Shown here: positions 1,106 to 26,420 of the stretch, one piece after another
Numbering within the stretch: position 1 is the stretch's first letter
Layout of the letters: the number at the start of each line of letters is the position of its first letter
Notes under the pieces: generated by a model
Told to the model about the DNA's origin: nothing
The model's database searches: none
What the model saw: only the letters and a program-made list of their open reading frames with translations
From: Prochlorococcus marinus str. NATL2A
GTDB lineage: Bacteria; Cyanobacteriota; Cyanobacteriia; PCC-6307; Cyanobiaceae
Direction of reading: 5' to 3'
DNA: 32,000 nucleotides
Assembly: GCF_000012465.1 (NCBI RefSeq)
Contig: NC_007335.2
Coordinates: 870,001-902,000 of the forward strand
Program-made: the position numbers and the translations under genes

Positions 1106-4100
1106 TTTATTATTTCTTCTATTGGAATTAAATTTTTCAATTTTACTGTCTATATCAGATAAAGCAGATTTAATAGATGCTATTTCTTCATTAGTTGCAT
1201 CTGTCCAAAGCTTTCGATTTGATGCTTCTAGTAGTCTTTCAGCGATATCTCTTAATGCCCATGGATTGTTATCAATAATAAATTTTCTTGTCTTTTCATC
1301 TACCAACCAATTATTTGCAATTGACTCATAACACCAGTTAGGAACAAGGTTAGTTGTTGCATCAAAAGAGAATAAATAGTCAAGGCTTGCTGACATCTCG
1401 AAAGCTCCTTTATAGCCATGTTGTTTCATTCCCTCAAGCCATTTTGGATTTAATAACCTACTCCTAACAACCTTATCTATTTCTTTTGAAAGTTTATGTA
1501 TTCTTGGTCGTTGATATCTAGAATTATCTGCAAAATAAGCTTGTGGATTGTTACCACTAGTTTTCTTTACAGCAGAGATTAAGCCACCCTGAAATTGATA
1601 GTAATCATCTGAATCGAGTATGTCGTGCTCTCTATTATCTTGACTATGTAGTACTACTTTTACTTTTGATAAATTATATTCCAACCCTTTTTTGTCTTTA
1701 ACAATATTGTTTGAACCTTCATATCGCCATTTACTCCATTCTATAAATGCATTAGCCAGTTCAGATTGATGATCCCATGAGCCATTATTGATAATTTCTT
1801 GCAAACCTGCTCCATATGATCCAGGTGCTGATCCATATATTCTTGAGTCGGTTTTTCCATTTCTATAAGACTCAGCAAGGGGATTAATTGCATTGGGCTC
1901 ATTTAAGTTCCCAATAAGGTTTTGTCCTCTTCGTATTAATTCAATGATTTGTGGGAATGCATCCCTAAATAAACCAGATATTCTTAATGTGACGTCGACT
2001 CTGGGCCTATTTAAAACACTCATGGGAATGACTTCAACGTCCACAACTCTTCTTAAAGTTCCATCCCATATAGGCATTAGACCCATAAGTGCAAATAGTT
2101 GACAAATATCTTCTCCTCCATTTCTCATGGTTGAAGTTCCCCATATTGAAATAGCGAGATGTAAAAGGTGCTCTCCATTTTCTTGTAGGTAAAGATCAAC
2201 TAATTTTTCAGCACTTCTTTTCCCTAGGTCCCATGCTGTTTCTGTTGGAATAGCTCTAATATCAACAGAAAAGAAATTTTTACCTGTCGGTAAGACCTCT
2301 AATTTTCCTCTTGTTGGGGCACCAGAAGGGCCGCTAGCAATTCTCTTCCCTTCCAATGCTTTAAGTAAATTAGTCTTTTCGGTTTTGGAACTTTTTAATA
2401 ATCTAGGTAAAATATTAGTTATTAAATGATTTATAAATATATTTGGGTTTTCAATATCTAAATATTTTAGTAGTTTACTATCAAGTTCGATTTTATTTTT
2501 GACAGTGGTTTCGAGATTAAGTATATGTATACAATGAAACTCAATTATATACATTCCAATTTCATTAAACCAGTCAATTAGCTGCCCTACTTTTCTTGCA
2601 TTAATAGAGGTATATTTTTTAAATAAATTAATATCTATTTGCGTTAAGTCCAAACTTTCTTCGTCTCTCCAGGGGTCTATGGTAAAACCTAAATCTTCAG
2701 CTAAACATTGTGATAAACCAGCGATATTCCCTGTAGGTACATTTGATATAGCCAACGTTAATTCAATTAGTTTATCCATACTTAGATTCACACCAAAGAT
2801 ATGAAGTCCTGTCCTTATTTGGGATTGTTTTAATTCACATAAATAACTTTCTGCAGTATCTATTATCTCTTGTATATTAATTTTTTTCATATCATCTTTA
2901 ATTATATTTGGGTCAATACTTGGCCATGAATTTTTAATTAATAACTCTATAATCTTTTTTTCTAATAACTCATTTCTATTATCATTTATAAGTTTAGATT
3001 CATAATATTCATCAATTAGGTTCTCAATTTCTATTAACTCATTATAACTACCAGCGTGAGAAAGTGGTGGTGTTAAATGATCAATAATTATCGCGTGTGT
3101 CCTTCTTTTTGCTTGTGACCCTTCTCCAGGGTCATTTACTATAAATGGGTATATGTTTGGTACTGGTGGGCAAATAATAAATGGGAAACAATTACTACTT
3201 AAACCAACACCTTTACCAGGTAACCATTCAACGCTACCGTGCTTTCCTAGATGTATAATTGCATTTGCCTTAAATGAATGCGTTAACCAAAAATATTGCG
3301 CAATATATTTATGTGTAGGTGGTAGATCTGGTGAGTGCAAATCTGATAAATTATCTGATTCAAAGCCTCTACTTGCTTGAACTAATACAGTTATATTTCC
3401 TAGAGTAAATCCATTGATCGGGAACCCGCTTTCTTCTAATTGTTTTGAAAAATTTGGTTCTCCCCATCGTTTAATTAACTTTTCCTTTGCATTAGATTCC
3501 ATTTTATTCCAATGGTATAAATAATCAACAAGGCTTAAATATGATTGGGGTTCGTTAGATATGGTTTCTTCAGAATTTGTCCTATAAGTAATTAACTTGT
3601 TAATTAGCTCTTTACTAGTTCGTGGCAAGGTGCTATCTCCTAAATAATATCCTTCATCTTTTAACCATCTCAAAAGGTACATAAGGCTTTCTGGTGTATC
3701 TAAACCAACTCCATTTGCAATCCTTGAATCCTTAACAGGATAATTAGCTATTACAACGGCAATTTTTTTATTGAAGTTACTTGATTTTCTAAGATAAACA
3801 AGATTTTTTATGTAATTAATACACCATTCAATATGTTTGCCATAAGGTTCTGTCTTATATACAGATATAGATAATTCATTATCTATATAGCTAAGATTTT
3901 TAAATGCAATTGGAACTGTACAAATTCGACCATCTACTTCTGGCAGAACAACTTGAATTGATAAGTCAATTGGATTTAAACCAACTGTTGATTTTTTCCA
4001 TTCATTAACCGTCGAACTGGATATAAGTAGTTGATAGACAGGAACGTCTAATGTGTCCCATAGGCTATTTTTTATATTATCATTCTTATATTCAACTGAT

Positions 4101-21647: not shown

Positions 21648-21833
21648 TTATCCAAGATAATTACAATATAAAACCCCATCATTTATTACATTATCATCAT
21701 CAACCTCTAACCATTCTTTGTATTCATCATACAGAGCTTCCCTGTTTTCACCATTCAAATTATTCAATCGTTTAAGTGATGCGTTTAGCATCACTTCTAC
21801 TGCGTTTAAAGCTCCAGATTGCCTAGCAGACAT
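21648..21833 (-). CDS. Hypothetical 61-aa protein, paralogue of the ORF at 22078..22257
   Basis: This ORF is on the track. It shares the core xxEVxxNxxLKRxxxLxGxxxxALxxExKEWxxxxxxxxxxxxVLYxN with the divergent neighbour. Confidence 0.6.
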   Translation of the reverse strand: MSARQSGALNAVEVMLNASLKRLNNLNGENREALYDEYKEWLEVDDDNVINDGVLYCNYLG

Positions 21834-22077
21834 AGAATAAATGAAGATTTAAATTAAATATTAGATCATGTAATACTTTTTTTCAGTTTCATTTATTACA
21901 GAATTCAGAATTTGACTAGTTTACGTAAAAAAATTTCTAAATAATTGAACAAATTTTGATTAATGTAGATGTATACATATAATGAGATTCATTTCATAGA
22001 GGTTTTAACTTATACGGGATTTACTAATTAACAGATGCTAGTAGAGATAATAGTATAAATTTAACTCATTAATTTAG

Positions 22078-22257
22078 ATGTCTAACACAAACATTCTAGG
22101 AAGTTGTGAAGTCACAATTAACTCTGCACTTAAGAGAATTTCTCAACTCGAAGGCAAAGACAAACAAGCTCTAAAGAGTGAGTTTAAAGAGTGGATAAAT
22201 GCAATTGAAAGTATAGAAAAAAACTATGATGTTCTTTACATAAATAAAATCATTTGA
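22078..22257 (+). CDS. Hypothetical 59-aa protein, paralogue of the ORF at 21648..21833; not on the supplied ORF track
   Basis: I translated this by hand from the ATG at 22078 to the TGA at 22255-22257: MSNTNILGSCEVTINSALKRISQLEGKDKQALKSEFKEWINAIESIEKNYDVLYINKII. It aligns with the 61-aa ORF with one 2-aa gap. Confidence 0.6.
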   Translation: MSNTNILGSCEVTINSALKRISQLEGKDKQALKSEFKEWINAIESIEKNYDVLYINKII

Positions 22258-22261
22258 TCAT

Positions 22262-22468
22262 TTATGCACGAGGATGTAAATCTGGATATCTACTGTTTTC
22301 GTCTTTTATTCTATTTGGATTTTCACGATCTGAACTTCTGGCAGCGTTAAAAATAACTAAAAAAGGTATGAATATTGCGAAGAAATAAAAATGCAAGAGG
22401 ACTAAATCCCATGGAGCACCTGTACTTCCGTAATCTGGAAAAAACAAAGCGGTAGCAAAAGGAAGCAT
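22262..22468 (-). CDS. Hypothetical 68-aa membrane protein
   Basis: It has one strong hydrophobic helix (WDLVLLHFYFFAIFIPFLVIFNAA) and a charged C-terminal tail. It lies 51 nt downstream of a 26-aa ORF on the same strand. Confidence 0.55.
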   Translation of the reverse strand: MLPFATALFFPDYGSTGAPWDLVLLHFYFFAIFIPFLVIFNAARSSDRENPNRIKDENSRYPDLHPRA

Positions 22469-22519
22469 TTTGATCCAATTTCTGATATCAACATAGCCAG
22501 ATTCGCTATCAAGCGTGGG

Positions 22520-22600
22520 TTACTTTTTTGACCAGGACTTAATTAAAAGCTGCAACTCTCTTATGCGTTTCTCTGCTGCTTCAATCTTTTCTGACTTCAT
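22520..22600 (-). CDS. Candidate 26-aa helical micro-protein
   Basis: Hand translation gives MKSEKIEAAEKRIRELQLLIKSWSKK, from the ATG at 22600 to the TAA at 22520-22522. It sits directly upstream of the 68-aa membrane ORF. The only support is the ORF and its position. Confidence 0.3.
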   Translation of the reverse strand: MKSEKIEAAEKRIRELQLLIKSWSKK

Positions 22601-22796
22601 TTTAGAATCTCAAATAAGCAGAACATATCCAAATGAACTGTACTGCGCGGTGTTAATAACCGTAAGAGAGTGATTAAATCCTAATAATTAAACTAAATAT
22701 TTGCTGTATGTAATAAGTTCAAACAACATACTAAAGCTTTGCACAAAAATAATTAACGAACTATATTAAAATCGTAAATATTTAATTCTATAAAGG

Positions 22797-23012
22797 ATGA
22801 AGTACATAACAGAGAGCATAAAAAATATAAAAAACCTTTTACCCTATTTACTGTTAATAGCTATATATTTCTTTTTTGTTAATCTTGAGGCACGGAAGGA
22901 TAACGAAACTATCAGAATAAACGAGAATGAAGTTAAGTTGATAGAAGAAAAATCAAGCGAAAAAAATAAACAACAAAGAATAAAAATCCCAGTTATTCCA
23001 TATAAACAATAA
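22797..23012 (+). CDS. Hypothetical 71-aa single-pass membrane protein
   Basis: It has an N-terminal hydrophobic helix (LLPYLLLIAIYFFFV) followed by a Lys/Glu-rich tail. Confidence 0.45.
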   Translation: MKYITESIKNIKNLLPYLLLIAIYFFFVNLEARKDNETIRINENEVKLIEEKSSEKNKQQRIKIPVIPYKQ

Positions 23013-23013
23013 A

Positions 23014-23127
23014 TTAATACCTAATATTTATTTTAGAAGTCCTTGCTTTAAATAAATTGGCTTGTCTTTGAGCAGCCCTATCTAGCTGTTTTTTAATTTC
23101 TAAGCAGTGCTCGCAGTTGCATGTCAT
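23014..23127 (-). CDS. Candidate 37-aa protein with an N-terminal CxCxxC motif
   Basis: Hand translation gives MTCNCEHCLEIKKQLDRAAQRQANLFKARTSKINIRY. Its stop lies 1 nt from the stop of the convergent 71-aa ORF. Confidence 0.3.
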   Translation of the reverse strand: MTCNCEHCLEIKKQLDRAAQRQANLFKARTSKINIRY

Positions 23128-23327
23128 TTTAGAAAATAAATAAAGAAGGTTTTAAGTGAGAAGGTAAATAAATGAAAAGCGAAAATGATTGAGAAGTTTA
23201 AAACTAACTAATTTTATGATAAATTTAACAAGAAATTAGAAAATTTCAAGTTGATTTTTTGAATAAAAGTAAAGTCTGATATTAGCTTTGTATGTGATTT
23301 AGTTGAATCTAATCCTTAGAGAATGAT

Positions 23328-23462
23328 TTAGTGATCATTGGAACCACGTTCGGCATCAATCGACTTCTCATAATAAAGGTCGAGAGTTGAGTTTAGTTCA
23401 GCTAATAAATATGTTATGCGTTCGTCCTTTTGATTTAAATCTTCTTGATTGATTAGTTTCAT
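23328..23462 (-). CDS. Candidate 44-aa acidic protein
   Basis: Hand translation gives MKLINQEDLNQKDERITYLLAELNSTLDLYYEKSIDAERGSNDH, from the ATG at 23462 to the TAA at 23328-23330. Confidence 0.3.
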   Translation of the reverse strand: MKLINQEDLNQKDERITYLLAELNSTLDLYYEKSIDAERGSNDH

Positions 23463-23736
23463 ATTTATATGAGTAAGTAAGGTACTCAGGAATGATTGGA
23501 ATTAATTTGAAGTACATGATTAGATAAAGCTTCAGATATAATCTGACTTTAAATAACCAGTGTTTTGAAATATTTAGTTAATTATTGGGGATTGAGAACT
23601 GAAGTGTGAATAAAGCTTGTTCGGTTTACAACCAGTCGGATTCTTCAGGATTACCAAATTTTAATAATGAATGTTTATATTTTTAAAAACTCCATTACCA
23701 ATATTTATAAGTGATCTAAAATTAAAAATCTATCAG

Positions 23737-23934
23737 ATGTCAATGAAAAGAAAATTATTTAACATCGATAAAAACACTCCATTTTCACTTATAGGTCTGG
23801 AAAAAAGAGCTGCACTTGCTATTCAGAACCATTTTCGATTGAGCAATTATCAAATGCTAGTACTAAGTTGGATAAAGGGTCTATGGACAGGTATTTTGCT
23901 TTCTCTAGTGGTTCATTATTTTATAAGTCATTAA
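23737..23934 (+). CDS. Hypothetical 65-aa protein with a C-terminal transmembrane helix
   Basis: The track ORF is 23671..23934. I prefer the internal ATG at 23737 (MSMKRKLFNIDKN...) because the upstream 22 codons are low-complexity AT-rich sequence. The C-terminal helix is WIKGLWTGILLSLVVHYFI. Confidence 0.4.
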   Translation: MSMKRKLFNIDKNTPFSLIGLEKRAALAIQNHFRLSNYQMLVLSWIKGLWTGILLSLVVHYFISH

Positions 23935-24077
23935 ACTCATGGATTTTTGCCATTTAATTAAAAATACTAATATATTTCCTTATAAAAAGTTCAACATCTT
24001 GGCAGGTTATAAAGTAGGTTTTCTATAGGAATTAATTCGATGTTCTATTTTTAAAAAGAAGATTATAAATCTTACTT

Positions 24078-24332
24078 TTATTCAGATGTTAACTGAACTT
24101 CCTTTCCCAAAATATTATCGTCTGTATTATCTAAATCATGAATCTCAAAATCATCTGTTAAAAATGTTTTTTTTGATTCAGCTGATTGGCTTTCTAAGGT
24201 TGTAAGATATGTTTTACCTATTTTTCTTTTATTTGTATAATACATACCTTGAATATAATTTTTATTTTCGGTAAATCTCATCAAAAATAATTTTAGATTT
24301 GAATAAGTGAAATTTTTAAAATTCTTAAACAT
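24078..24332 (-). CDS. Hypothetical 84-aa protein
   Basis: Only the ORF supports this call. It has a basic N-terminus and an acidic C-terminus, and I recognised no motif. Confidence 0.4.
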   Translation of the reverse strand: MFKNFKNFTYSNLKLFLMRFTENKNYIQGMYYTNKRKIGKTYLTTLESQSAESKKTFLTDDFEIHDLDNTDDNILGKEVQLTSE

Positions 24333-24772
24333 AAAAAAACTGATATATATTTATTATGGCTAAGCTAATTATTTAAACTGAATGAGATTAGTAGTGCATT
24401 CCGAACTTTTTTGTCTTTCTATACTGTATTTATAAACTACGATAAAATTAAAAAAGCTACAAATCGGTAAATGTTCACGCATATAACGATCATTTTTAAA
24501 TTAACATACTACTTTTATTTGATAGGTAGCAAAAAATACAAATTACCTTATAAGAAATTAATTTTAACTTCTTATGGTTTGTAAAGACATTAATCAAATA
24601 TTAATATCCTAAATATTGCTTGATAATTGGTGTGGTATGAGTCATGTTCAATTTAAATAACAACAAGTAAAAATGATATATAACTCACTCTACTAGTCAA
24701 TAATTGAGAGTAGATAATACCGAACAGTGAAAACACGCATTTATATGTATCTGTTCTTATAGTTGTAAGAAC

Positions 24773-24937
24773 ATGATAGAAACAGTTTTTAAAAATCAAG
24801 TCTTAATGACTTTTGTAATTGCAAGTATTTGGATAATCCCAGGTATACTATTCACATTTGCAACGAATCGCAAATACAAAAATCGACAAATTGAAAGGCA
24901 GATTAAAAAGGTAGCTAAATTATATCCTCAGCAATGA
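24773..24937 (+). CDS. Candidate 54-aa single-pass membrane protein; not on the supplied ORF track
   Basis: Hand translation gives MIETVFKNQVLMTFVIASIWIIPGILFTFATNRKYKNRQIERQIKKVAKLYPQQ. It has a clear 20-residue hydrophobic helix followed by a basic tail. Confidence 0.45.
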   Translation: MIETVFKNQVLMTFVIASIWIIPGILFTFATNRKYKNRQIERQIKKVAKLYPQQ

Positions 24938-24981
24938 TTTAAATGTATCGTAATCCAGCAAATTCTTAGTTGCTTTAAGAT

Positions 24982-25038
24982 TTATTTTTTATTTTTTTCG
25001 TTATTATTTACTGGACGAACAGGCTTAGGTAGAAGCAT
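24982..25038 (-). CDS. Micro-ORF, 18 aa (MLLPKPVRPVNNNEKNKK), copy A
   Basis: I translated this by hand. Its first 10 residues are identical to copy B at 25612..25671, although 6 of those 10 codons differ, all synonymously. It lies 76 nt downstream of the 51-aa ORF on the same strand. Confidence 0.6.
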   Translation of the reverse strand: MLLPKPVRPVNNNEKNKK

Positions 25039-25114
25039 AAGAGAAAAATGTAGCTAATCTTTTTTAACCATGATCGATATAGGAGTCTGCATTTAATGAT
25101 ACGATTTTCTATTT

Positions 25115-25270
25115 TTAGCTTTTAGTTGTCTTTTCTATAACTTTTTGGAGTTCAGCTCTTGAAAGAGTAGCTTCAATTTGAGCCAAAACTTGCTGTAGTT
25201 CGGCAGTTTTATTCAATGACGTCTCAGCCATAGATCTAAGCTTTTGAAGTTCTTTAGAGGCAGTTTTCAT
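25115..25270 (-). CDS. Hypothetical 51-aa helical protein, cassette copy A
   Basis: Hand translation gives MKTASKELQKLRSMAETSLNKTAELQQVLAQIEATLSRAELQKVIEKTTKS. By my manual alignment, about 30 of 51 positions are identical to the 52-aa ORF at 25760..25918. Confidence 0.6.
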   Translation of the reverse strand: MKTASKELQKLRSMAETSLNKTAELQQVLAQIEATLSRAELQKVIEKTTKS

Positions 25271-25521
25271 AGATAAAATGAAAAGATTGATTTTTTCCTA
25301 GAGAAAGTACAGATAATTAGCGAAAAAATTAATAGTGACAACACACGAACAAATTTGCCCTAGATTTTCATGATGTCAATAGATTTGATTGTGAACTGTT
25401 AATAAATCAATGGGTGTATGAATTTTCTATTAAGTTTTTTATTTATATCTATATTTCTGTTTTAAAAAATATAAGGAATATATAACCTTTTACTTAAATT
25501 GATTTATTGAGCATAAAAAAA

Positions 25522-25553
25522 AGAACAAAGGTATTCATTGATACCTATGTTCT
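25522..25553 (-). terminator. Rho-independent terminator-like hairpin downstream of cassette copy B
   Basis: AGAACAAAGGTAT (25522-25534), the loop TCATTG, then ATACCTATGTTCT (25541-25553). This makes a 13-bp stem with one mismatch. It is flanked by an A8 run on the plus strand (25514-25521), which reads as a U-run after the hairpin on the minus strand. It lies 58 nt downstream of the micro-ORF stop. Confidence 0.65.
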
Positions 25554-25611
25554 TTTAATAACAAACAATAAAATAATAATTAAGAATTAATTAATTAAAT
25601 AATGATCTTAG

Positions 25612-25671
25612 CTAGCTGTCTTTACCTTTCTTTTCAGCATCAACAGGTCTAACTGGCTTAGGCAATAGCAT
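25612..25671 (-). CDS. Micro-ORF, 19 aa (MLLPKPVRPVDAEKKGKDS), copy B
   Basis: I translated this by hand. See copy A. It lies 88 nt downstream of the 52-aa ORF and is followed by a terminator hairpin. Confidence 0.6.
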   Translation of the reverse strand: MLLPKPVRPVDAEKKGKDS

Positions 25672-25759
25672 GATAAAAATCCAATCTATATACTTATTTA
25701 TAGGTGGTTTTCAAAATACGTAAATAAGAATTTAAAGTTTGAAACTTCTTGACATAAGC

Positions 25760-25918
25760 CTACCTCCTTTTTAAGGACTTCTCAGTCACCTTTTGCGTTT
25801 CCTTTCTTGAGAGCGTTGCCTCCAATCTCGCTAGCGCTTGTTGTAGTTGAGCAGTTTTATCTGTTGATCCCTCAGCTTTAGAGAGTAGCTTCTGAATTTC
25901 TTGTGATGTATTTATCAT
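25760..25918 (-). CDS. Hypothetical 52-aa helical protein, cassette copy B
   Basis: Hand translation gives MINTSQEIQKLLSKAEGSTDKTAQLQQALARLEATLSRKETQKVTEKSLKRR. It is a paralogue of the ORF at 25115..25270. Confidence 0.6.
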   Translation of the reverse strand: MINTSQEIQKLLSKAEGSTDKTAQLQQALARLEATLSRKETQKVTEKSLKRR

Positions 25919-26054
25919 AACTGAATGAAAATAGCAGTTGAGTCTGCATGTTTGATTAAAATAAAGAAACCAAGACAGTCATTTGCCTACGAAAAGCTAG
26001 GATTTAGAGGATCATTAAAGATTCCATTAATGATTCTTAATGGAGAGAATATCT

Positions 26055-26261
26055 ATGACAGAAGATTGGAAGCCAGTAGATTCTCAAGTCTTAGTAGACG
26101 CATGGGATGAAATTAAGGACTGTGCTGAAGGTATACAAAAAGATTTAGCTTGCCCAGACGAGACTATTTCAAAAATGCTGCGGTCAGTCGCTGAAACATT
26201 TGATAACACTGTCGAAGATATTCTTGATAAGGCTGAAGAGGATTGGGAAGAAGATAAATAG
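26055..26261 (+). CDS. Hypothetical 68-aa highly acidic protein
   Basis: The track ORF is 26040..26261. I prefer the ATG at 26055 because GGAGAG lies 8-13 nt upstream of it. The sequence is MTEDWKPVDSQVLVDAWDEIKDCAEG...AEEDWEEDK. Confidence 0.5.
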   Translation: MTEDWKPVDSQVLVDAWDEIKDCAEGIQKDLACPDETISKMLRSVAETFDNTVEDILDKAEEDWEEDK

Positions 26262-26276
26262 ATGTATTATTGACAT

Positions 26277-26420
26277 ATGAATCCAGATTTCTTTCAATCT
26301 CCTGACCCTCTAACTCATATGGGCCAATGGAAAACGATAATTGGCTTGTTCATAGTTTTATTTGCAACTTTTGTAGGAGTCGAAATTAGGATTGGTAATG
26401 AAGATGAAGAGACAAAATAA
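26277..26420 (+). CDS. Candidate 47-aa single-pass membrane protein; not on the supplied ORF track
   Basis: Hand translation gives MNPDFFQSPDPLTHMGQWKTIIGLFIVLFATFVGVEIRIGNEDEETK. It starts 15 nt after the stop of the acidic ORF. Confidence 0.4.
   Translation: MNPDFFQSPDPLTHMGQWKTIIGLFIVLFATFVGVEIRIGNEDEETK

Follow-up and report, generated by a model that had tools for sequence, protein, structure and literature searches.

The cyanobacterial regulatory small proteins AtpTheta, NblD, PirA, AcnSP, SliP4, and NirP1 are about 37 to 80 amino acids (aa) long. In enterobacteria, SpfP (15 aa, from Spot 42) and SgrT (43 aa) are hydrophilic peptides that act in trans on a protein target. The peptides MgtL/MgtP, TnaC, SecM, and the RAPP-type ApdA/ApdP are encoded in the 5′ leader of the gene that they control, operate together with coupled RNA structures or Rho sites, and carry their critical residues at the C-terminus. 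Oncocin, Bac7, apidaecin, and drosocin are secreted animal peptides derived from precursors, with repeated PRP motifs and a proline content of 25–50%. The cyanobacterial regulators named above have been reviewed, and PetN (29 aa) was named there as the shortest conserved cyanobacterial protein (PMC11848123). Short mRNAs of Prochlorococcus MED4 and its peptide-coding Yfr6/Yfr9 transcripts encode conserved peptides of 33–130 aa (Steglich et al., 2008; PMC2518516), and an earlier search for overlooked small open reading frames (ORFs) in Prochlorococcus stopped at 33 aa (PMC2518516). Here, we describe a 19-codon micro-ORF, termed copy B, and its paralogue copy A in a low-GC stretch of 32,000 nucleotides (nt) of the Prochlorococcus marinus str. 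NATL2A genome (NC_007335.2, positions 870,001 to 902,000), referred to as the window. Copy B is probably a stand-alone, trans-acting, and unannotated protein-coding micro-gene, the 19-residue product of which is what selection preserves.

Two related micro-ORFs in the window

Each of the two micro-ORFs (Table 1) is located 76–88 nt downstream of one of two paralogous genes, FAM51-A and FAM51-B, whose products share 61% identity. Over the first 30 nt, copies A and B differ at eight positions, six of which are third and two first codon positions; the latter are found in the codons CTA/TTG and CGT/AGA (copy A/copy B). As stated in a first-pass annotation of this DNA, all eight mismatches within the first ten codons are synonymous. 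The probability that the peptide survives eight random substitutions in codons 2–10 is p = 2e-6 to 8e-6. The upstream spacers (76 and 88 nt) are 58% identical, compared to 56.6 ± 2.6% for shuffled spacers, and the 80 nt downstream of the two copies are 56% identical. Given a probability of 2–8e-6 and flanks with an identity at the level of shuffled sequences, the exclusively synonymous pattern is not the result of chance. When the back-translated 10-aa core was searched with up to three mismatches, copies A and B were the sole matches in the 32 kb, and none was obtained in 100 shuffles.

The C-terminal tails diverge after residue 10, as already described in the first-pass annotation (NNNEKNKK in copy A versus DAEKKGKDS in copy B). 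Common to both paralogues is the sequence M-L-L-P-K-P-x-R-P-x, which is followed by a polar or acidic stretch and a Lys-rich end. The copy B peptide is hydrophilic, with 8 of 19 residues being charged.

Purifying selection on the copy B frame

Related loci were gathered via the neighboring FAM51 gene and not via the micro-ORF, and the set is therefore unbiased with respect to the latter. It comprises 22 loci (10 from species-representative genomes and 12 from metagenomes, numbered with the prefix L), all of which belong to Prochlorococcus; one is from strain MIT1012 of the low-light clade I (LLI). The gene order around the unit of FAM51 gene and micro-ORF is the same in all of them, including MIT1012, and the closest metagenomic loci encode proteins identical or near-identical to those of the window. 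Copy B was found in 22 of the 22 loci, about 90 nt downstream of FAM51-B, and its frame is intact in 23 of 23 sequences, with an invariant ATG. The consensus peptide, MLLPKPVRPVD[S/A]EKKGK plus two variable residues, is most strongly conserved at the N-terminus and least at these last two positions.

The codon statistics were determined for the first 17 codons of the 23 sequences, which represent 20 distinct nucleotide haplotypes. The variable sites are distributed over codon positions 1, 2, and 3 in a ratio of 2/0/16, and 17 of the 18 sites vary by synonymous changes only. The sole amino acid change is Ser/Ala at residue 12. The mean pairwise proportion of synonymous differences (pS) is 0.48 and that of nonsynonymous differences (pN) 0.013, resulting in a pN/pS of 0.026. 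For the neighboring genes, pN/pS values of 0.16 (FAM51-A) and 0.40 (FAM51-B) were obtained at a pS of about 0.55; by this measure, copy B is the most constrained gene of the locus and FAM51-B the fastest-evolving gene of the unit. The synonymous sites of copy B are about as free as those of its neighbors, which argues against an overlapping constraint at the RNA level. By these comparative measures, the copy B frame is demonstrably under strong purifying selection at the protein level. The claim of the first-pass annotation that the peptide itself is selected, rather than an RNA structure or a DNA site, is borne out for copy B by the pN/pS of 0.026 and by the terminator as the sole conserved RNA structure (see below). 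An interruption of the frame within a conserved nucleotide sequence, which would have pointed to an RNA or DNA element, occurred in none of the 23 sequences.

Predicted expression signals of copy B

The expression signals of copy B were read from a 22-sequence alignment (Table 1). A sigma-70-like promoter block precedes the ORF, in which the 16-nt stretch between the two conserved boxes varies among the sequences. Transcription would start about 7 nt past the −10-like box, leading to a 5′ untranslated region (5′UTR) of approximately 17–20 nt. The short 5′UTR is AU-rich and contains a weak Shine–Dalgarno match. The stretch upstream of the ATG is considered non-coding because the indels found there are not multiples of three. 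Upstream of the promoter-like block, the near-invariant element TCAAGAAGTTTCAAAC includes a small dyad (GTTTC/AAAC); one exact copy of the element is present in the window, and near matches occur at chance level. NtcA, HLR1/RpaB, CRP-like, or Pho-box motifs were not seen by eye in the upstream block or in TCAAGAAGTTTCAAAC.

The approximately 55 nt following the stop codon of copy B are not alignable among the 22 sequences. An inverted repeat begins 55 nt after the stop codon and forms the stem of a predicted intrinsic terminator. Its RNAalifold consensus comprises 11 pairs, nine of which show compensatory changes in at least one sequence, and the hairpin dominates the minimum free energy fold of the putative copy B transcript in the window. 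Beyond this hairpin, RNAalifold revealed no meaningful conserved structure in the alignment of the copy B locus. Copy B is hence predicted to carry its own transcription start and stop signals, and its transcript would be monocistronic with a length of roughly 180–190 nt; read-through from FAM51-B would also be possible. The first-pass annotation had placed the ORF at the 3′ end of a transcription unit, before a terminator. The terminator was recovered, whereas the view of copy B as merely the 3′ end of the upstream gene does not agree with its own conserved promoter-like block. A frame kept under purifying selection and own start and stop signals, here predicted, are among the features that characterize bacterial microproteins encoded by small ORFs, and copy B is the founding member of a new family among them.

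Table 1. Positions of the micro-ORFs, the FAM51 genes, and predicted regulatory elements in the window
Feature	Position	Strand	Description
Copy B micro-ORF	25612..25671	minus	19 codons and stop, translation MLLPKPVRPVDAEKKGKDS; conserved gene
Copy A micro-ORF	24982..25038	minus	18 codons and stop, translation MLLPKPVRPVNNNEKNKK; paralogue under relaxed constraint
Copy B promoter-like block	25696..25724	minus	TTTACG-N16-TATAAAT, conserved in the alignment
Copy B −35-like box	25724..25719	minus	TTTACG, invariant or nearly so in 22 sequences
Copy B −10-like box	25702..25696	minus	TATAAAT, invariant; ends 24 nt before the ATG
Upstream element	25737..25752	minus	TCAAGAAGTTTCAAAC, near-invariant; roughly −45 to −62 from the putative transcription start
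Copy B intrinsic terminator (predicted)	25515..25556	minus	Arms 25556..25541 and 25534..25519, followed by a run of 8 T
FAM51-B	25760..25918	minus	52-aa gene, 88 nt upstream of copy B
FAM51-A	25115..25270	minus	51-aa paralogue between the two micro-ORFs
FAM51-A TTGACA box	25380..25375	minus	Conserved, promoter-like; roughly 100 nt before the FAM51-A ATG

Copy A as a relaxed paralogue

With two FAM51 genes, each paired with a micro-ORF, the region is a tandem duplication of the whole unit. Copy A originated when the gene for the 51-aa helical protein was duplicated together with its micro-ORF, and the constraint on it is now relaxed. Copy A is intact in the window and in L011-13. It is also intact, with substitutions at residues 7, 8, or 10, in L001 (with a TTG start), L005, L006, and L007. 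In the other loci reaching past FAM51-A (about 12), copy A is broken or absent: codon 3 is a stop codon in L014, and the remainder have an unrecognizable copy or none. The intact sequences have a pN/pS of about 0.28–0.38, a value derived from a small set that includes one B-type duplicate. No promoter block comparable to that of copy B was seen upstream of copy A. Judged by this pattern, copy A is a relaxed paralogue that about half of the loci have lost or carry in a degraded form, a point on which the first-pass annotation is corrected.

Just past the FAM51-A stop codon (window positions ~25070..25095, minus strand), a ATCATTAAATGCAGA(C/T)TCC block is kept even where copy A has decayed. This block could be a 3′ element of FAM51-A or a remnant of a copy A promoter.

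Alternative explanations

The approximately 190-nt transcript might act as a dual-function small RNA (sRNA), that is, mainly as a base-pairing riboregulator comparable to SgrS/SgrT or Yfr6 and Yfr9. The predicted size and the presence of an own promoter and terminator fit an sRNA as detected in transcriptome studies, and for Prochlorococcus MED4, sRNAs that encode peptides have been proposed (PMC2518516). However, the terminator is the only conserved RNA structure outside the ORF, the 55-nt 3′ spacer is unalignable, and the synonymous sites vary about as freely as those of the neighboring genes (pS 0.48 vs. 0.55), which indicates the absence of a conserved seed. Copy B also has no match to a curated Rfam model and displays none of the features, be it conserved structure, seed, or model match, by which structured or base-pairing sRNAs are assigned. 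A riboregulator as the main function is therefore distinctly unlikely.

Alternatively, the nascent peptide could act in cis as a leader or arrest peptide, with its translation or a stalling at the proline-containing core controlling termination or the expression of FAM51-A. Arrest peptides are likewise conserved at the amino acid level, and copy B is short, contains three Pro codons among ten, and is followed by a terminator and then by a gene on the same strand. Against this stands the distance of the terminator stem, which lies 55 nt past the stop codon behind an unconserved spacer and is thus out of reach of a terminating ribosome. No conserved anti-terminator structure was obtained with RNAalifold, FAM51-A is preceded by a conserved promoter-like block of its own with a TTGACA box, and copy A, which faces a convergent gene, has no downstream gene on its own strand that could be regulated. 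The peptide itself argues in the same direction: the N-terminus is most conserved and the last two residues least, which is the reverse of known arrest motifs, and neither consecutive Pro codons nor a RAPP- or RAGP-like motif are present. A 5′ leader position with mutually exclusive RNA structures, as in attenuators, was found neither for copy B nor for copy A, and a C-terminal motif with a cis target, as in arrest peptides, was not found either, nor was a coupled downstream element. We consider a cis-acting role very unlikely. The first-pass annotation had likewise doubted a classical leader or attenuator, a doubt supported by the conservation of only the terminator and by the own promoter-like block of FAM51-A. 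Its remark that the peptide loosely resembles arrest peptides and proline-rich antimicrobial peptides, on the other hand, did not withstand the comparison with the defining features of either class.

It is highly improbable that the product of copy B is a precursor from which a modified or exported peptide is made, for instance a ribosomally synthesized and post-translationally modified peptide (RiPP), a signaling peptide, or a peptide resembling proline-rich antimicrobial ones. Its very short length, its strong conservation, and a cationic core rich in Pro would suit such a precursor, but a signal peptide, a leader/core layout, and Cys residues are lacking, and the single Ser alternates with Ala. 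The conserved neighborhood consists of small ORFs and a PPOX-type flavoprotein gene and includes no gene for a modifying enzyme, protease, or transporter. With 3 Pro among 19 residues and one Arg, copy B is far below the content of proline-rich antimicrobial peptides, and the features of neither this class nor RiPP precursors were found in it.

The assumption of a non-functional chance frame, whose conservation would stem from gene conversion, from a duplication of recent date, or from the promoter or terminator with which it hitch-hikes, could draw on the decay of copy A in many genomes and on the ease with which a 19-codon ORF arises in AT-rich DNA, but it is effectively refuted because gene conversion would homogenize the nucleotides, at 8 of 30 of which the paralogues differ, and because the orthologues are near-saturated at synonymous sites with one amino acid change in 17 codons and 20 haplotypes. 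A type I toxin was also considered and rejected due to the hydrophilic nature of the peptide (8 of 19 residues charged); the generic promoter scan listed no promoter-like site for an antisense RNA on the opposite strand across the copy B ORF.

Proposed function of the copy B peptide

Our favored explanation is that copy B is a micro-gene with a trans-acting product. Being hydrophilic, cationic, and too short to fold, the peptide would most likely function in docking, as a short linear motif. A larger partner would be bound through the N-terminal MLLPKPVRP, which is invariant and represents an extended PxPxxP segment, and solubility or electrostatic contacts would come from the tail rich in Lys, [D/N]x[E/D]K[K/N][G/K]K. 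This proposal is made because of the analogy with the characterized cyanobacterial small regulatory proteins. The adjacent helical FAM51 proteins are weakly suggested as the sole partner candidates from the genomic context, because they were duplicated as a unit with the micro-ORF and are always adjacent to it in LLI.

Several points weigh against this explanation. The docking mechanism and any partner are pure inference by analogy, and selection on the peptide cannot distinguish a trans-acting peptide from a nascent peptide acting in cis. The copy B gene is known here solely from its sequence, and its promoter from consensus and conservation. The promoter-like block is not listed by a generic promoter scan, an omission explained by the scan rule, which demands a T at position 6 of the −10 hexamer, whereas the copy B hexamer ends in A; the promoter call consequently rests on the consensus and the conservation pattern. 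The decay of copy A in many genomes means that two copies are not required. Finally, the association with FAM51 is not obligatory: in L001 (~2990-3159), FAM51-B contains an in-frame stop codon next to an intact copy B, and FAM51 relatives in other lineages have no micro-ORF alongside.

A more specific and rather unlikely version of the trans-acting micro-gene is that the peptide is a lineage-specific endogenous regulator that tunes electron flow or translation in LLI via LLPKPVRP. This segment might dock to a protein with an SH3-like or beta-barrel fold that functions in photosynthesis or translation, for which PsaE, NdhS, FtrV, or a ribosomal protein may be examples, or it may occupy the ribosomal exit tunnel in analogy to proline-rich antimicrobial peptides. 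If true, it would be the shortest functional conserved cyanobacterial protein known, and its gene might have arisen de novo within the 3′ region of FAM51.

A 19-codon gene held at a pN/pS of about 0.03, tighter than its neighbors, is very likely doing something. Its detection illustrates that genes below every annotation threshold can be recovered solely by comparing paralogues and orthologues. Copy B offers a synthesizable peptide with a clear invariant motif for pull-down experiments and in vitro assays, and the micro-gene would gain considerably in interest with the discovery of a partner that acts in photosynthesis or translation. The forms of the peptide to be targeted by mass spectrometry are (f)MLLPKPVRPVDAEK and the intact 19-mer.

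FAM51 genes and the surrounding small ORFs

AlphaFold2 predicted a single helix for FAM51-B (predicted local distance difference test score 83.5). No Pfam, NCBIfam, or PHROGs family matched FAM51 above threshold, and weak matches to DUF883, EntA_Immun, and GvpG were rejected as generic helical matches. The family is small; among 1.84 billion proteins, it accounts for 130 clusters formed at 50% identity. Upstream of FAM51-B (25919..25990, minus strand), the motifs GACTGTCTTGGTTTCTTCATTT and TGCTAATTTC are conserved near the start codon; the latter resembles an extended −10 box at a distance of just about 12 nt to the ATG, so that the FAM51-B mRNA would be nearly leaderless. In L023 and L025-L027, a single FAM51 homologue (MNKT[QK]EQLEKLR..., e.g., L025:2367-2522) is situated just downstream of pstC, pstA, and pstB and adjoins genes for a metallophosphoesterase and an Lhr-type helicase; a micro-ORF is absent. 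This lineage is probably a high-light clade of Prochlorococcus, and the linkage to pst may hint at a phosphate-related role of FAM51.

Both units belong to a syntenic cluster of conserved small ORFs (26–87 aa) that extends from a tRNA methyltransferase gene to the PPOX-type flavoprotein gene (21648..26420), the latter being missing from some related loci. Most of the small ORFs have no family match, and several are probably real genes that are unannotated or poorly annotated. Among them are a 26-aa ORF (22520..22600, minus strand), for which 96% identity was observed in L003, an ORF of 37 aa that contains a CxCxxC motif (23014..23127, minus strand), and a highly conserved acidic ORF of 73 aa (26040..26261, plus strand). 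The ORFs at 21648..21833 (minus strand, 61 aa) and 22078..22257 (plus strand, 59 aa) cross-match at 32–44% identity in related loci and are, by this similarity, a second small-gene paralogue pair of the region.

Distribution of the micro-ORF and database searches

Searches with the peptide and its neighbors against Pfam, NCBIfam, PHROGs, and PDB sequences yielded nothing above threshold, and the Rfam search of the window returned tRNA-Met only. An exact look-up of micro-ORF variants of 21–26 aa in 15 billion predicted proteins was negative. A concatenate of three variants, searched against a large protein database, retrieved only artefactual longer ORF calls, which were upstream extensions or translations with alternative genetic codes (TGA as W, TAG as Q). 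The metagenome gene calls P0105-P0113, in which the micro-ORF is lengthened by 40–75 residues, are such alternative-code annotation artefacts and not true variants. The literature search turned up no paper containing the peptide sequence string and no Ribo-seq or small-protein study on LLI strains of Prochlorococcus. The exact back-translated core had no match in viral contigs; the 16 matches of a looser core pattern were dismissed as chance hits in unrelated high-GC or long ORFs.

Two metagenomic sequences contain the micro-ORF in an unusual context. On a 1-kb ENA metagenome scaffold (L028:1-1027), a phage amidase gene is joined to a copy B micro-ORF, which brings along about 24 nt of its 5′UTR and continues in frame into the first 37 codons of the phage gene that follows. 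The amidase belongs to non-cyanophage-like marine phages and shares 81% nucleotide identity with IMG/VR contigs of phages that carry GroEL/ThyX. At the junction, the GC content falls from 0.45 to 0.30; for the final 125 nt, no match was obtained, and a host-type terminator is lacking there. Due to the GC jump, the origin of the amidase, and the lack of a second example, the scaffold is judged to be a probable assembly chimera, a real capture by a phage being the less likely reading. An ENA contig with a coverage of 1 (L029:1-605) carries two B-type micro-ORFs in tandem, each with a full promoter block. The first is fused at ...EKKGK to the FAM51 3′ end in another frame, across a AAGAAAGGAAA microhomology, and the contig may reflect illegitimate recombination that led to a local duplication or, alternatively, a read that is chimeric. 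On present evidence, the distribution points to a micro-gene specific to the LLI arrangement.

Comparison with known systems

With oncocin, Bac7, apidaecin, and drosocin, the copy B peptide shares a cationic, extended, and non-hydrophobic character, the P-x-P or R-P spacing, and a similar length. It differs from them in being a bacterial product, predicted to be cytoplasmic, that contains 3 Pro and 1 Arg, and no similarity to any protein family or solved-structure sequence was detected. A short Pro-containing ORF is common to copy B and the group of proline-codon leader ORFs and arrest peptides (MgtL/MgtP, TnaC, SecM, and ApdA/ApdP), and conservation at the amino acid level is shared with the arrest peptides, whereas the leader position, the coupling, and the C-terminal motif are not shared. 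SpfP and SgrT resemble copy B as short hydrophilic peptides, but they are embedded in base-pairing sRNAs of another phylum and are unrelated in sequence.

The MED4 short mRNAs are, like copy B, small intergenic transcription units encoding conserved short peptides missed by annotation. Yfr6 and Yfr9 are conserved over the whole RNA and have a predicted structure and antisense partners; in contrast, conservation at the copy B locus is confined to the ORF, the promoter-like block, and the terminator. The group of AtpTheta, NblD, PirA, AcnSP, SliP4, and NirP1 has experimental support and no sequence similarity to the 19-aa copy B peptide, which was recognized by sequence analysis alone. These proteins bind a larger protein or complex, which for copy B is only proposed. 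At 19 aa, the copy B peptide is shorter than PetN (29 aa). The features that it shares with the cyanobacterial regulators are a stand-alone small gene, a length below that of a catalytic protein, a frequent omission from annotation, and, for some of them, the restriction to a lineage.

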